DNA of 25,540 bases from positions 1 through 25,540 of IMG/VR virus record IMGVR_UViG_3300037313_000084, one strand, 5' to 3'. The notes beneath the pieces are model-generated. The model was not told the origin of the DNA, did no database searches, and was given only the letters and a program-made list of their open reading frames with translations. Both the position numbers and the translations under genes were made by a program. Below are positions 2,358 to 25,485 of the stretch, piece after piece (position 1 is the first letter of the stretch; each line of letters starts with the position of its first letter). This DNA comes from a virus. Taxonomy: Duplodnaviria > Caudoviricetes.

Positions 2358-3851
2358 TCAGAGCTTCCACTCGGGCTGCAAGCGGTCGGTGTCGAAGCGG
2401 CAGCCGCCGCGCGTCTTCGACGCCTCGACGCGAATCGTCACGAACAGATCGCGCAGCAGCGCGCGACGCTGTGAGAGATTGAGCTGCTCCCAGCGCTCGC
2501 GCATGTCGCTCGCGTCTTCGATGAGCGTCAGCGCGTTCGTCTTCGTCGCACGTGAGAGCGCTGAACGATTGACATGCAGGCGCTCATTGACGATCTCGCG
2601 AGCTGCGGCCCACTCGGCGCGCGTGATCTCGCCCTCTTGCCGATCAGTCATCAAGTCGATCAGCTCTTGCTCATCCTTCGTGATCGCGGCAGTCAGCTTG
2701 CGCACGTCGCTCGCGCTGATCGACTCGTCGTGACGAGCTGCGAGACGCTTGAGCAGCGTCGAGCGCGGCTGTGACAGAAACTCGATGACGAGCTCTTCGA
2801 CGTGCTGCTCAGCGCCACTTGCAGACACGCTGAGTCGCCCGCATCCCGCGACCTTGCTCGTCGGGCGATTCGGGTCACAGCGATAGTTGCGACGCCCGCC
2901 GCGATCGACGCCAGCAGACATTGGGTTGCCGCAGATCGAGCACGACAGAACGCTGCTCAGCAAATGACGAGCTGTCGCGCTCTTCGATTGCGCACGATCT
3001 GACGATGAGAACAAGCGACGCAGCTTGTCGCTCGTCTCGACGTCGATGATCGACTCCCAGAGCCCATCGGCGACGATCTCGCCGAGCTTGCTGCCTTCGC
3101 GACCGACTTCGCGTCGCCCGCTGATGCGAGCTGACGTCAGCACGAGACGCAGAGCAGTGCGCGACCAGCGACCGCCCGTCGACGTCTTCACGCCGTCGCG
3201 ATTCCACTCACTGACGATCGAGTTGAGCGACTCGCCCGCAAGCACGCGCTTTGCAGCGAGTCGAATGAGCTCAGCTTCGTCAGGCTTCGTCGCGACGCGA
3301 TCGAAGTCGTACCCGAACGGACGTGGCCCGCCCGACCACGGCTTGCCATTTCGTGCAGCTTCATCGCTCGCTGCGCGCTGACGCTCTGACTTGTGCTCGA
3401 TCTCCTGACGAGCAGCAGCGCCAACGATGCGCGCGACGAGTCGACCTGTCGGCGTCGAGAGATCGACTTCGCCGGTCACGGTGCCGAGCTGTAGCCCGTG
3501 CTGTTCAGCCATGCTGATGACGTGCTCAAGCTCAGCGGGCTTGCGCGTCAGCCTGTCGACGTGCCAGCAGACGATCGCGTCTATCTTGCCCGCTTCGATG
3601 TCAGCAAGCATGCGCAGATATTCGGGGCGCGGCTTTCGACTCGTCGCGCTGACGTCATTGTCGCTGTAGACCTCGACGACGTTCCAGCCGTCGCGATGAG
3701 CTGCGATCCACTCGCGGCAGAGTCGCTCTTGACGCTTCGTCTTCATGCCCGCGCCAGTGCGGTCCTGACTGATGCGCACATAGATCGCGACGCGGGTCGT
3801 GGTTGCGTGTTTCCTGATGAGAGCTCGTGAGCTCGATGCTGTTCTAGTCAT
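2358..3851 (-). CDS. int: Large serine integrase (resolvase + recombinase + zinc-ribbon + coiled-coil domains)
   Basis: AIYVRISQD catalytic serine motif; VYSDNDVSA; RPEYLRML; VDRLTR; GGPRPFGY; LLSSVLSCSICGNPM...YRC...C zinc ribbon. Start is 3851 (leaderless, preferred) or 3863. Confidence 0.97.
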   Translation of the reverse strand: MTRTASSSRALIRKHATTTRVAIYVRISQDRTGAGMKTKRQERLCREWIAAHRDGWNVVEVYSDNDVSATSRKPRPEYLRMLADIEAGKIDAIVCWHVDRLTRKPAELEHVISMAEQHGLQLGTVTGEVDLSTPTGRLVARIVGAAARQEIEHKSERQRAASDEAARNGKPWSGGPRPFGYDFDRVATKPDEAELIRLAAKRVLAGESLNSIVSEWNRDGVKTSTGGRWSRTALRLVLTSARISGRREVGREGSKLGEIVADGLWESIIDVETSDKLRRLFSSSDRAQSKSATARHLLSSVLSCSICGNPMSAGVDRGGRRNYRCDPNRPTSKVAGCGRLSVSASGAEQHVEELVIEFLSQPRSTLLKRLAARHDESISASDVRKLTAAITKDEQELIDLMTDRQEGEITRAEWAAAREIVNERLHVNRSALSRATKTNALTLIEDASDMRERWEQLNLSQRRALLRDLFVTIRVEASKTRGGCRFDTDRLQPEWKL

Positions 3852-3858
3852 GCTCACG

Positions 3859-3888
3859 ATCATACGTCAGAACGACGTCATAAGTGAA
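3859..3888 (-). promoter_or_regulatory. Putative sigma-A promoter for a leaderless int transcript
   Basis: Minus strand reads TTCACT-N18-TATGAT-N7-ATG(3851); no SD sequence upstream of int. Confidence 0.55.
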
Positions 3889-3924
3889 AGGTCGCGAGGG
3901 CCACGTTTCGATAATGACGTCGTT
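3871..3924. other. Candidate attP site of the serine integrase
   Basis: 54-bp dyad: perfect AACGACGTCAT (3871-3881) / ATGACGTCGTT (3914-3924), plus GAAA/TTTC (3886-3889/3906-3909) and further inner matches; centre dinucleotide AG at 3897-3898; directly upstream of int. Confidence 0.7.
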
Positions 3925-4124
3925 ACTCTGTGAGCGTGACGGACGCTCAGCGCGAGCTCGACGTCAGCACGTCGACCATATCGATATGCGACGCGTCGGG
4001 ACTAGCTCTCCCACTCGCTGGCTTTCGTCTGCTTGAATGCTGCATGCGCTCATGATCGCGTGCATAGACTCGCGATCGAGCGTGCTTGCACTGCACACTC
4101 GGGTAACTAGTGGAAGGCAATCGA

Positions 4125-4517
4125 ATGGCACGAAACTCGGCAGCTCTGCGCGTCGTTCAAGCAGAGCTAGAAGAGCCGACCGGCGATATCTCGCTGACGC
4201 GTGAAGCGATGAGCGGCTGGCGAGAAGGGCAGCGGCGCTGTCGAGCTCGCAAGCGGCACAACTGGGGTCCGCACACTGTCTTGGAGTACCGCTACCACTA
4301 TGAAGTCGTCGAGCAGTGCACGCACTGCCGCAATCGACGCAAGGCGGATTTCTCGAAGACGGGGCGCAAGCTGACTGCGTGGAAGGCTGACTATCGAGAG
4401 GGCTACTTGCTCCCGAAGGGCGCGCAGCGAATCGTCGACGAGCTGCAAGACGAGCTCTGGCTGGGCGACATTCTCAGTCGACGCATCGTCGAGGCTCCCG
4501 ACCCAGAAGATGAGTGA
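4125..4517 (+). CDS. Hypothetical basic protein with putative Zn-binding motif (C-x5-H...CxxC)
   Basis: GGAAGG SD before ATG 4125; CRARKRHNW...CTHC; overlaps the next ORF by 8 bp. Confidence 0.75.
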   Translation: MARNSAALRVVQAELEEPTGDISLTREAMSGWREGQRRCRARKRHNWGPHTVLEYRYHYEVVEQCTHCRNRRKADFSKTGRKLTAWKADYREGYLLPKGAQRIVDELQDELWLGDILSRRIVEAPDPEDE

Positions 4518-4779
4518 TGAGATCGAATGGGAAGATCCGCCCGATGCGATTCTCAATCGCGAGCGTCGAGGGAAGTATGACGACTTCGCTGACGCGCTGC
4601 GTGAGCGCCCTCAGCAGTGGGCAGTCGCTCCCTTCGAACGCACCATCAAGGGCGCTGATTCGCTCGTGAACAGCATTCGTCACGGCAAGATGCGGACGTT
4701 CCCCAAAGGCGAGTTCGAAGCAGTATGCGATCGTCATACAGGCAAGGTGTGGGTTCGCTACATCAAACGAGAAGCGTGA
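4510..4779 (+). CDS. Actinophage hypothetical protein, possibly DNA-binding
   Basis: 89 aa; pattern WEDPP...KY...ALRERPQQWA...GEFEA...VWVRY resembles recurrent small actinophage proteins. Confidence 0.75.
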   Translation: MSDEIEWEDPPDAILNRERRGKYDDFADALRERPQQWAVAPFERTIKGADSLVNSIRHGKMRTFPKGEFEAVCDRHTGKVWVRYIKREA

Positions 4780-4809
4780 CTAGAGAAGCAACGAGAGGAA
4801 GAGATCATC

Positions 4810-5319
4810 ATGGCAAGAGAGATCATCGCGTGGTGCGACGCGCACCTGATGAACGACCCTGACGAGCGCGTGCAGGGCGCGCAGTACGTCTTCGCAATCA
4901 ACGGTGTCGAGCGCTCGATCGACATGTGCGACGACTGCTTCAAAGAGCTTGTCGAGCCGCTGCGCTCGCTGCTCGACGACGCAGGCCAGCGAGTGCACGA
5001 CGTTGCTCGTTTCAAGCCGAGTTCTGAGAAAAAGATCGAGTGCCCGATGCCGGGGTGCGTCAAGCGCTACTCGAATCGTGAGGGCTTGCGCAAGCATCTG
5101 AACAAGTTCCACGACATGACGCTGACCGAAGTCGAAGCACAGCTCAACTCAGAAGCGGGTGCACAAGCGCTCAGCGACACTCTCGGCACCGGCCCCTATG
5201 CGTGTCCCGAAGACGACTGCTCGCGCAGCTTCGAGACGCCGCAAGGTCTCGGCGCGCATCGCAGTCGCGCGCACGGCTACGTCAGCCCGCACACGAACGG
5301 CGGCAAGAAGGCGAGCTGA
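4810..5319 (+). CDS. Lsr2-like N-terminal domain fused to two C2H2 zinc fingers; putative regulator
   Basis: Purine-rich GAGAGGAAG upstream. FAINGVERSIDM..L...L....AGQRV parallels Lsr2 FGLDGVTYEIDL..L...L...AGRRV. Two C-x4-C-x3-[YF]-x5-L-x2-H-x4-H motifs at 5041-5112 and 5203-5274. Confidence 0.8.
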   Translation: MAREIIAWCDAHLMNDPDERVQGAQYVFAINGVERSIDMCDDCFKELVEPLRSLLDDAGQRVHDVARFKPSSEKKIECPMPGCVKRYSNREGLRKHLNKFHDMTLTEVEAQLNSEAGAQALSDTLGTGPYACPEDDCSRSFETPQGLGAHRSRAHGYVSPHTNGGKKAS

Positions 5320-5325
5320 CACACG

Positions 5326-5365
5326 AAAGAGCCCCTCGCAGTCTCATGACTGCGAGGGGCTCTCT
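5326..5365. terminator. Bidirectional intrinsic terminator
   Basis: Perfect 16-bp stem AGAGCCCCTCGCAGTC (5328-5343) / GACTGCGAGGGGCTCT (5348-5363), 4-nt loop, between the convergent zinc-finger gene and holin. Confidence 0.88.
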
Positions 5366-5423
5366 CTATGTGCAGATGATCTGTGCGCGCGTCAGCGACG
5401 AACCTCGCGCGTCGTGCGAGCTC

Positions 5424-5627
5424 TCAGAGCGTGTCGTCGCTCGTCTGATTCGGCACGATGTACGTCGTCAGTCCTGCGACGACAGCACTCGCGATGACGA
5501 TGAGCCACTGCACGAGCCCCATGTCATCGACGTCTGTGCGTCCCTGCACTGTCGCGATGAACGACATCAGTGCAGAGATGATCGCGGCAACGTATGCCTT
5601 GTGTGCAGTCTGCTTCTGAGCAGCCAT
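5424..5627 (-). CDS. Holin (2 TM)
   Basis: 67 aa; KAYVAAIISAL...WLIVIASAVVAGLTTYIVPN; directly after the endolysin; GGAG SD. Confidence 0.8.
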   Translation of the reverse strand: MAAQKQTAHKAYVAAIISALMSFIATVQGRTDVDDMGLVQWLIVIASAVVAGLTTYIVPNQTSDDTL

Positions 5628-23413: not shown

Positions 23414-24838
23414 TCACCTCTCTTCTGGCTTGTGCAGCACGATCACTGGCTCGAATCGCTGCATCTGCTCGCCCTGACCGGGCACGCGTGACAGCGGGAA
23501 TCGCTCGACACGCAGCAGCTCGAAGCCGAGCTCTTGCGCGACGTCGCACGTCCACTGCACAAGCGGATAGGTCGTCGAGCCGATCTTGACGTCTGCGATG
23601 TTGATGACGTTGTGCGCGCCAGCTCGAAGCGCGACGTACTGCAACGCGAGCATCGGGCGCAGGAAGCCTTCGCGCCATGCGTCGCCGCTCTTGTATCGCT
23701 GCCAGCTCTGCGTGTCGTCGTCGCTGTATTGCTCTTTCGAGAAGTACGGCGGCGACGTGAATGCGAAGTCGCACGAGTCGCGCAGCGGGATCGCGTCAAC
23801 GTCTTCTGCTGGCAGATTGATCAGCTCGACGCCGTCAATGCCGAGCGTCTTCGTCATGCGCAGATTGCCGTCGTGCGTCGGCACGTTCGGATCGATGCCG
23901 ATGTACCGACTGCACTTGCTCGCTGCGTAGCCGATGAGCCTGCCGCCGAAGCCCGTTGACGTGTCGAGCACTGTCGCGCCGTCTGGTGCAAAACGTCGAT
24001 ACATCAGCAGCGCGAAGCCGGGTCGAAAGTTCGCTGCGACTTGCGTGCCGAGCACCATGCCGAGCGAGCTCAGCAGTGACGTGTCGTTGAGCTTCGAGCC
24101 GTCGTCGATGACGAGCTCGATCGCGCGTCGCATGCGCTCGTCATCGTTGAACGCGTCGACTGCTGTGCGTGAGCGCTTGCCTGCGATCGGGACATGCCAG
24201 CGATGCGGGTGATAGCTGTCAGCGACGTGATAGCCGATGTCTGTCGTGAGCAGTGCTTCGCTGTCGAGCGTCGCGAGCTTGTTGAGTTGCTGCATCTGCT
24301 CATGCAGTGCGAGCTCGCGATATGGAAACCCGCGCTCGCGATAGAAGTTCATCGCTGCTTCGACGATCTGCTCACGCGTGAACATCGAGAACGCGTCGAG
24401 CTCTGCATCTTGCTCGACGTCTGTCGCTGCTGCGACGTCGAGTGACGACATCAGTGCGAGCAAGTCTTCGTCGCTGTAGCCGGTGCCGTCGAGCTCGTCG
24501 AAGCCTTGCAGCAGCTCGACGAGCTGAGCTTCGTCATAGTCAGCGACGTCGTTACTGCGGTTGTCGACGAGCAAGATGCGTCGAGCTCTGTCGTCGTCGA
24601 CGTCGAGCCAGATGACAGGCAGCTCGTCGATGCCGCGCTCGCGAGCTGCGAGCAGTCGATGATTTCCAGCGAGCACGTAGCCGGTCGAACGCTGCGCGAT
24701 GACTGAGCCATAGAAGCCGTTGTCGTCGATCGAGCTCGCGATCTTGTCGACGTCACCGCGTCGCGGGTTGTGCGGGTGCGTACGCAGCTCGTCGATGTTG
24801 ACGAGCTCGTACTGCTGCGCGATCACAGCAGCGCTCAT
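23414..24838 (-). CDS. ParB/Srx-domain protein fused to an amino (N4-C/N6-A) DNA methyltransferase
   Basis: N-terminal HPHNPR..IASSI..GF..LAGNHRLLAA..DNR. C-terminal motif I VLDTSTGFGG, YIGID and motif IV FTSPPY. Start at 24838 by ATGA overlap. Confidence 0.88.
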   Translation of the reverse strand: MSAAVIAQQYELVNIDELRTHPHNPRRGDVDKIASSIDDNGFYGSVIAQRSTGYVLAGNHRLLAARERGIDELPVIWLDVDDDRARRILLVDNRSNDVADYDEAQLVELLQGFDELDGTGYSDEDLLALMSSLDVAAATDVEQDAELDAFSMFTREQIVEAAMNFYRERGFPYRELALHEQMQQLNKLATLDSEALLTTDIGYHVADSYHPHRWHVPIAGKRSRTAVDAFNDDERMRRAIELVIDDGSKLNDTSLLSSLGMVLGTQVAANFRPGFALLMYRRFAPDGATVLDTSTGFGGRLIGYAASKCSRYIGIDPNVPTHDGNLRMTKTLGIDGVELINLPAEDVDAIPLRDSCDFAFTSPPYFSKEQYSDDDTQSWQRYKSGDAWREGFLRPMLALQYVALRAGAHNVINIADVKIGSTTYPLVQWTCDVAQELGFELLRVERFPLSRVPGQGEQMQRFEPVIVLHKPEER

Positions 24839-25485
24839 GCCCACGACCCCCAGATTCGGGTTATGCAACGTCGATAGTTCGCGAGATCAGCAGGCTTCGG
24901 CGCATCGTGAGCGAGCAGCGCGACTTGTGCGCCGACACTGTGGAACGCGCACACTTTGCCTCGCCAGTTCGGCATCGTCACGAGCGTCATGAAGTAGACA
25001 AGCGCGCCGACGCGCTGCGCGTACTTGACCATGCGAGCTGCGAGCTCGCGATCGTCAAAGCTCTTCGTCTTGAGCTCGAAGCACGGCACGACGCCGCTTC
25101 GCTTGCAGATGCGCACAAGCTCGGCGTAGGAGTGAATGCGCACGCGTGACCCGTATGACGTGCCGACGTGTCGAGTGCGTCGCAGCCGCTTCACGTCGCG
25201 TGTCGACCAGAAGATCAGCGGTCGATCGAGCTCGCTGTCAGTCAGCGCGCGACGCCCGAGGCGACTGCGACGCACGATGAACAGATAGCCGTTCGCGCGC
25301 GGCGTTCCCCAGTGACAGCCGCAGACACCGTCTGCTGTGCGTTGCAGATTGAGATCGATGAAGCGCCCGCCGTCTGAGCCGACTCGCTGTCGTGCAGCGT
25401 TACGCACAGCACGAGGAGAGTCGCCGAGCCAGTACGGCTCGACATGCAGTCGATCAGTGCGTGCGGGCATCGCGACGTCGATCAC
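24835..25485 (-). CDS. Divergent glycerophosphodiester phosphodiesterase (GDPD)/PLC-like TIM-barrel protein
   Basis: FIDLNLQRTADGV...HW parallels the GDPD pattern IELDVxxTxDGxxVxxHD; PCFELKT parallels NIELK; GAGGGGG SD before GTG. Confidence 0.6.
   Translation of the reverse strand: MIDVAMPARTDRLHVEPYWLGDSPRAVRNAARQRVGSDGGRFIDLNLQRTADGVCGCHWGTPRANGYLFIVRRSRLGRRALTDSELDRPLIFWSTRDVKRLRRTRHVGTSYGSRVRIHSYAELVRICKRSGVVPCFELKTKSFDDRELAARMVKYAQRVGALVYFMTLVTMPNWRGKVCAFHSVGAQVALLAHDAPKPADLANYRRCITRIWGSWA

Follow-up and report, generated by a model that had tools for sequence, protein, structure and literature searches.

A phage protein joining an Lsr2-type dimerisation domain to two C2H2 zinc fingers, and the family to which it belongs

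Introduction

Protein P0001, of 169 aa, is encoded on the plus strand at positions 4810..5319 of a phage genome, and appears to place two zinc fingers of eukaryotic spacing behind a domain resembling the dimerisation domain of the silencer Lsr2, which raises the question of what such a combination is, how far it extends among phages, and what it would do for its virus. A preliminary description, made from the DNA alone, had proposed either a counter-silencer acting on host Lsr2 or a sequence-guided prophage silencer in place of a classical repressor.

The window, that is, the whole stretch of DNA analysed, corresponds to a whole virus record of 25,540 bp (G000), with a completeness of 61% according to CheckV. 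The virus is a temperate siphovirus with 62.5% GC, whose terminase, portal, capsid, tail and amidase genes lie in a minus-strand block, and we infer an actinobacterial host from the GC content, the Lsr2-type gene and the Atlas taxa. The stretch was present in 11 soil or rhizosphere DNA runs, with at least half of its words found in 10 of them; three of the runs are possible sources. Upstream of the terminase gene, a minus-strand gene (23414-24868) encodes a fusion of a ParB-like domain with a region that weakly matches a DNA methylase.

Results

Gene layout of the locus

P0001 is the third and last gene of a plus-strand operon (4125-4517, 4510-4779, 4810-5319). The first gene (4125..4517) encodes a zinc-ribbon-like protein of family phrog_4480, with the pattern C-x5/6-H-x-W ... 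C-x2-C; its longest ORF begins at 4110, and the likely ATG start is at 4125. Between this gene and P0001, a small inserted gene (4510..4779) matches phrog_2660, and a purine-rich stretch resembling a ribosome-binding site precedes the P0001 ORF. A hairpin with 19-bp arms lies 3' of the P0001 stop codon (5325..5366), at the end of the operon facing the lysis genes; found by an inverted-repeat search and not called by a simple terminator scan, it is the likely terminator between the operon and the convergent lysis cassette. Contigs from two other public runs match the P0001 region with 0 differences (X4 over 4053-5089 and 5138-5393; X6 over 4140-5268); as they are identical over the ORF, P0001 is not an assembly artefact.

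On the other side, a large serine integrase gene (2358..3863, minus strand) is divergent from the P0001 operon, and just upstream of it an imperfect inverted repeat (3871..3924) is the likely attP. In run X10, a contig of 151 nt and low depth agrees with 3878-3924 apart from 3 differences, beyond which it continues into unrelated DNA. Next to this repeat, the dyad GAGCG-N7-CGCTC (3932..3948) is a candidate operator or att-accessory site, taken as a lead only. Behind the integrase, the product of the minus-strand gene at 1894-2370 begins like a signal peptide and carries, at its C-terminus, basic heptads (KRQH) in repeat; it is possibly a secreted or membrane protein expressed in the lysogen.

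A distant Lsr2 dimerisation domain with a zinc site at the N-terminus

The N-terminal domain of P0001 (aa 1-62; 4810..4995, plus strand) is a distant Lsr2 dimerisation domain with a treble-clef zinc site, as indicated by five concordant lines of evidence, each of them non-decisive. By sequence the likeness is weak: PF11774 was the top Pfam match for aa 1-71 (E 0.058, 13.5 bits), under its cut-off of 29.6, and a search of the whole record at E<=0.001 gave no PF11774 match. When 26 aligned N-domains were compared with Pfam, PF11774 matched 9 of them at E<=1 (best 0.0018) and each of 11 other families matched 1; across the wider family, the best members reached E 0.0013-0.0018. The AF2 model of the domain (pLDDT 91) displays a beta-beta-alpha arrangement, with strands at 24-30 and 33-39 and a helix at 41-58, and when this model was compared by Foldseek to 350,542 chains, chains A and B of the solved Lsr2 dimer 4E1P occupied ranks 1 and 2 (prob 0.91 and 0.82; TM 0.57/0.64), with E values of 0.32 and 0.58 that are not significant. 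Lsr2 clusters were also retrieved in the Atlas at TM 0.65-0.67, under the Atlas naming bar, and the hhalign comparison with five annotated phage Lsr2 proteins reached P 2.6e-5 (prob 75). The kinship with Lsr2 first perceived by eye is thus upheld, with structure and family evidence in agreement. A bridging case is P0235, in which this zinc N-domain is followed by a genuine DNA-binding domain of Lsr2 (E 1e-9, above the Pfam cut-off), and which matches annotated phage Lsr2 genes in 54 records, 32 of them over 80% of the P0235 length.

At the ten conserved Lsr2 residues listed in PMC3374832, P0001 has six identical (D12, F25, I34, D35, L44 and L48), two conservative and two changed positions. The equivalents of D12 and D35 are kept in 121/129 and 110/129 homologues, respectively; Lsr2 Y32 and W51 are not kept, and the D28-R45 salt bridge is lost, being replaced by N31/V48 in P0001, with V, L or I at the R45 position in 113/129. 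The CxxH...CxxC motif noticed at the outset is present as C9-x2-H12 and C40-x2-C43, the four predicted zinc ligands. In the classification of treble clefs in PMC4999995, the Lsr2 N-domain is counted among treble clefs and homologues with all four ligands are noted; in the alignment given there, C9, H12, C40 and C43 fall on D11, D14, S37 and N40 of 4E1P. Since homologues retaining the zinc ligands have been published (PMC4999995), the zinc site itself is not new; two of these, I8QSD7 and Q47NC6, have the same four ligand positions, and no C2H2 fusion is described for them in the part of that source dealing with Lsr2.

A homodimer was predicted with an ipSAE of 0.61, versus 0.00 for the best of 3 controls, with pLDDT >=85 and 100% contact agreement between runs; the ipSAE mark used is reached by 20/30 solved homodimers and 1/23 single chains. 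In the model, strand 27-30 pairs in antiparallel fashion within a four-stranded sheet, the antiparallel helices cross at L51, and residues 59-60 pack on 35-37, like in 4E1P. The N-terminus therefore models as the Lsr2-type beta-beta-alpha homodimer, and this pass may itself derive from the likeness to 4E1P.

The first cysteine lies at position 9 in 89/129 homologues, two residues before Lsr2 D11, so that the N-terminus is 2 residues shorter than in Lsr2, and Ala, Ser or Val occupies position 2; a longer N-terminus is found in 36 members. Once the initiator Met is removed, the short form would begin at the position of Lys4, from which Lsr2 forms chains after its activation by a protease; the two aspartates that bind the Lsr2 N-terminal amine are kept in the family, and the Lys side chain is not.

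Two classical C2H2 fingers follow, and the AT-hook is absent

Both fingers lie on the plus strand: finger 1 (aa 76-101; 5035..5112) reads C78-x4-C83-x12-H96-x4-H101, and finger 2 (aa 130-155; 5197..5274), with recognition helix QGLGAH, reads C132-x4-C137-x12-H150-x4-H155. The spacing originally read from the translation is borne out by Pfam, with zf-C2H2 (PF00096) at E 9.8e-8 and 32.5 bits against a cut-off of 25.2. The classical consensus C-x2-4-C-x12-H-x3-5-H is satisfied, including the aromatic/Leu core (Y87/L93 and F141/L147), and all finger ligands but C83, together with C9 and C40, are invariant in 91/91 aligned homologues. The AF2 model of the whole protein, built with 91 sequences (mean pLDDT 87, pTM 0.48), contains three confident independent modules, namely the beta-beta-alpha unit (residues 24-58), finger 1, which is extended by a helix at 105-117, and finger 2, with pLDDT >90 on both finger helices. 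Top Foldseek rows for the fingers were C2H2 proteins throughout (best E 5e-3), and profile matches went down to E 2.8e-19. Neither the RGR AT-hook nor PF23359 was found in P0001 by Pfam, consistent with the absence of the usual AT-hook domain already remarked.

The preliminary description had also compared the HDMTLTE tail of finger 1 with Ros/MucR. The tail is present, but the likeness is loose: finger 1 has a spacer of 12 residues versus 9 in MucR (C-x2-C-x9-H in Ros/MucR; PMC9779718), and the H-x-[ML]-T-x-x-E tail occurs in 3/102 two-finger homologues in strict form and 8/102 in loose form. In the hhalign comparison with the MucR encoded in locus L011 (P 2e-4, prob 47), finger 1 aligned only with a 3-residue gap, and we rejected a MucR-type finger on account of the spacer and the gap. 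The region of the helix predicted after finger 1 aligned to the MucR tail, to which it may be similar. PF05443, the Ros/MucR family, is absent among the Pfam matches listed for the Lsr2-C2H2 proteins. Both systems have an oligomerisation domain with a C-terminal zinc finger, which acts as a silencer in MucR and putatively does so here, as well as the H-x4-H spacing, and a helix is predicted after finger 1 as in MucR, whereas MucR, besides its shorter spacer, has one finger and an unrelated N-domain.

Regarding DNA recognition, helix position +3 is G, S or A in 83/102 first and 86/102 second fingers; as the helix positions that read bases in eukaryotic fingers mostly hold small residues, strong sequence-specific reading is not evident. 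Long linkers separate the two fingers (n=102; median 16 residues, the shortest 10, and none <=8), with no short linker of TGEKP type, and the C-terminal parts of the family are basic (median pI 9.2). In the finger 2 helix (n=102), Q is found at +2 in 49, G or A at +3 in 75 and G at +5 in 60 proteins. Strict QGLGAH occurs in just 39/131 matches found with the N-domain alone, hence its near-invariance in the first homologue set reflects ascertainment. The plant Q-type (QALGGH) EPF/ZPT fingers (PF00096/PF13912) share the consensus and the long linkers, with QGLGAH in register (Q at +2, a small residue at +3, L at +4 and G at +5), although 2 of the 6 letters differ and the protein here is phage-encoded and built on a dimerisation domain of bacterial type; common descent is no more likely than convergence. 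Plant proteins with long linkers and QALGGH fingers bind short AGT cores (PMC3268024).

The architecture recurs in a large family

A four-sequence profile found 185 proteins, of which 120 form the listed set. To this was added a 26-sequence profile of the N-domain only, searched against 1.84 billion sequences, which yielded 1374 clusters (50% identity) at E<=0.001 and 305 at E<=1e-10, so that the family comprises at least 305 clusters at the latter threshold; weaker N-domain matches beyond the best 150 may include canonical Lsr2. Fusion counts rest on these best 150 of the 1374 matches, 131 of them new. By regular expression, 127 of the 131 have at least one C2H2 finger, 100 proteins carrying two, 26 a single one and one protein four, while 4 lack any; among those listed RGR[ILV] occurs in 0/131 and PF23359 only in P0235. 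The union of an Lsr2-type domain with C2H2 fingers and no AT-hook is therefore recurrent, with hundreds of uncultured relatives. Pfam gave C2H2-type families for most of the first 35 of the 131. The four fingerless matches correspond to two proteins whose finger has a wider Cys spacing, one unrelated repeat protein, and P0235. The counts given with n=129 and n=102 exclude P0157 and P0235.

Several variants were observed. A subfamily of 34/129 by regular expression (P0128, P0130, P0139, P0201 and others) has a helical C-terminal extension with GDPxG after finger 2, and P0201 carries the whole finger pair twice. An excisionase-like HTH is apparent by eye after the fingers of P0061, and P0117 and P0120 have GLGAH-type fingers with the Lsr2 domain absent. 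Locus L018 encodes tandem Lsr2-C2H2 paralogues, two-finger and single-finger (4317-4931 and 5001-5474), with one partner gene.

Genomic context: a constant partner gene and the integration region

Scans yielded a total of 24 loci (9 viral, 1 genomic and 14 metagenomic), of which 15 hold the N-domain and 14 are distinct, given that L023 duplicates L008; the other nine are cut by a contig end or contain the finger motif only. Every locus was retrieved by its match to the PQGLGAHR pattern and several are close kin, so the counts are not independent events and describe the context of one subfamily only.

The phrog_4480 zinc-ribbon gene is directly upstream in all 15 loci holding the N-domain (14 distinct), and in the eight loci checked its stop codon and the Lsr2-C2H2 start overlap or are at most 3 bases apart; the phrog_2660-type gene inserted in the window was found in none of the related loci. 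Family phrog_4480 is common in phages, with Atlas clusters of up to 476 members, and structure and Atlas comparisons found no solved relative. Gordonia phage MaVan has a phrog_4480 gene without an Lsr2-C2H2 gene.

An integrase is adjacent in 10/14 distinct loci (7 serine, 3 tyrosine). The closest relative, L017 (40% identity), has the same layout as the window. In L001-L006, the Lsr2-C2H2 module is divergent from an early operon with HTH_17 and exonuclease genes, which is the classical switch position, and in L001-L007 the excisionase-like HTH_17 gene is separate. Locus L014, from Mycobacterium phage Anthony (gp32-33), shows a canonical Lsr2 gene converging on a serine integrase gene, as the Lsr2-C2H2 gene does in L001-L006. 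An XRE (HTH_3/HTH_31) gene lies directly upstream in L002, L003 and L004, between the module and the early operon; in G005 such a gene lies some 5 kb off, in G001 there is just a weak match on the HTH_17 gene, and none was found in G006 (100% complete), G007 (96%), G008 (23%) or G000 (61%). With XRE genes in three relatives, the Lsr2-C2H2 protein is not needed there as sole repressor. The silencer proposed from the start fits this context, but its role as a substitute for a classical repressor is not general.

Candidate DNA sites

No operator common to all loci was found. In L001-L006, GACACGCC is enriched in the non-coding flanks of the module, with 14 copies in 6 kb versus 4 in 122 kb elsewhere (for example, at 5379, 6503 and 6515 of L001, and 4727, 6480 and 6509 of L004), and it is not present in the window. 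It contains GACAC, the host WhiA motif (PMC10243135), and might be a sign that WhiA/WhiB of the host regulate the phage switch in those loci. The exact dyad GAGCG-N7-CGCTC is found once in the window and once in L017, in the same place. L017 also has an attP-like inverted repeat between integrase and operon (1420-1465), as the window has at 3871-3924.

Discussion

Our preferred reading, to which we give an even chance, is that P0001 dimerises, binds DNA, likely through its fingers, and silences or co-represses phage genes from the lysogeny/integration region. Each dimer would present two finger pairs on flexible linkers, so that it could grip or link short major-groove sites that recur along a GC-rich phage genome. 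GC across the loci is 59-75%, and even the most AT-rich 200-bp windows of the genomes have 54% GC; in such a genome an AT-hook would find few targets. Silencing would then resemble that of prophage CGP3 by CgpS (PMC7074111) with the reading head swapped, the fingers standing in place of the AT-hook, and the genomic setting is similar to that of lsr2 genes, which in temperate actinophages are enriched near integrases and repressors (PMC8612146). The phrog_4480 partner would work with the Lsr2-C2H2 protein, with an XRE repressor alongside in some phages and possibly none in others; more speculatively, dimers might chain through the N-terminal strand, no proteolysis being required. A bolder version, which we regard as rather doubtful, would see in the gene pair a widespread non-HTH lysogeny switch of uncultured actinophages, in which a scaffold that polymerises constitutively, its N-terminus in 89/129 members beginning where that of protease-activated Lsr2 does, is steered by the fingers to short repeated sites of GC-rich phage DNA, acts as a eukaryote-style zinc-finger chromatin silencer in bacteria, and has no other repressor beside it in phages like G006 and G007.

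Other functions would account for part of these observations. Mixed dimers or chains with host Lsr2, which is reportedly needed for mycobacteriophage infection, might lift silencing or drag Lsr2 to phage DNA. Such counter-silencing or retargeting would fit the hydrophobic dimer core conserved at the F25, I34, L44 and L48 positions and the induction of CGP3 by truncated N-terminal CgpS (PMC7074111); nevertheless, we hold it to be unlikely, considering the loss of the D28-R45 bridge and of Y32/W51, the location of the gene in the integrase/immunity region rather than in an early lytic operon, and the retention of fingers in 127/131 of the homologues listed, for which a pure dominant-negative protein would have no need. 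The frequent integrase neighbour, and the attP-like repeat and shared dyad behind which the operons of the window and L017 start, would also suit an architectural accessory of integration or excision, either an Xis/IHF-like bender or a directionality factor, alone or with the phrog_4480 partner. Accessory needs, however, differ between serine and tyrosine integrases, and the gene is tied to both (7 and 3 loci); moreover, L001-L007 already contain an excisionase-like HTH_17 gene, and this role seems improbable to us.

The fingers might instead be interaction modules of a protein- or RNA-binding adaptor, with a treble clef that acts like the ClpG N1/McsA zinc domain rather than as a chromatin scaffold. 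Foldseek placed the ClpG N-domain 8P66, likewise a zinc-site fold, at rank 3 (prob 0.77), an Atlas structural row pointed to a UVR-motif cluster (TM 0.51), and both the small recognition-helix residues and the long linkers speak for such modules. Against this, Lsr2 outranks ClpG in every comparison, the Lsr2-specific N-terminal strand, D-L-C motif and terminal Gly are kept, and the plant QALGGH fingers bind DNA with the same small residues and long linkers (PMC3268024), which makes an adaptor quite unlikely. Lowest in probability, and very unlikely in our judgement, is a lytic-phase organiser compacting replicating phage DNA: canonical Lsr2 genes do occur in lytic as well as temperate actinophages (PMC8612146), but the operon here runs opposite to those of the early and late genes, and its place is the switch/att region.

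Lsr2, CgpS and the phage proteins annotated as "Lsr2-like DNA bridging proteins" (PF11774 and PF23359; 4E1P) share with P0001 the beta-beta-alpha N-domain and predicted dimer geometry, the layout of a linker and C-terminal DNA-binding part, and the proximity to integrases in temperate actinophages. Conversely, the P0001 family is distinguished from them by one or two C2H2 fingers replacing the AT-hook, the zinc ligands kept, the D28-R45 pair lost, the constant zinc-ribbon partner gene and the GC-rich genomes. A classical finger fold in a prokaryotic virus has a precedent in the AFV1p06-type proteins of archaeal viruses (PMC3541406), but these are small, single-finger archaeal proteins with no Lsr2 domain. 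A search of the full-text literature on Lsr2, C2H2 and lysogeny in phages, at the level of titles and abstract openings of the papers listed and with subscription papers outside its reach, found no description of an Lsr2-C2H2 fusion, and the main text of the survey of Lsr2 in 2951 actinophages (PMC8612146) contains none of the words "zinc", "fused" or "cysteine". We regard the family as a real and widespread variant among Lsr2-type regulators, one that seems not to have been described.

According to PMC3541406, bacteria have practically no classical C2H2 fingers, and here such fingers are the usual C-terminal module, placed on an actinobacterial silencer scaffold, in a family that numbers at least 305 clusters. 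If the fingers read DNA, they would show how a xenogeneic silencer can exchange AT-rich minor grooves for GC-rich phage DNA as its target, adding a possible non-HTH route to lysogeny control; the proteins would also be natural test cases for the debate on the origin of eukaryotic zinc fingers from MucR, and their zinc-binding Lsr2 domains would test the treble-clef origin of Lsr2. Lsr2-C2H2 proteins are small and easy to assay. Proteins of Microbacterium phages Casino, Burro, Arete and their kin, mostly annotated as "DNA binding protein", match the two-finger region weakly (best E 2e-3), and are possibly tractable phage C2H2 proteins.
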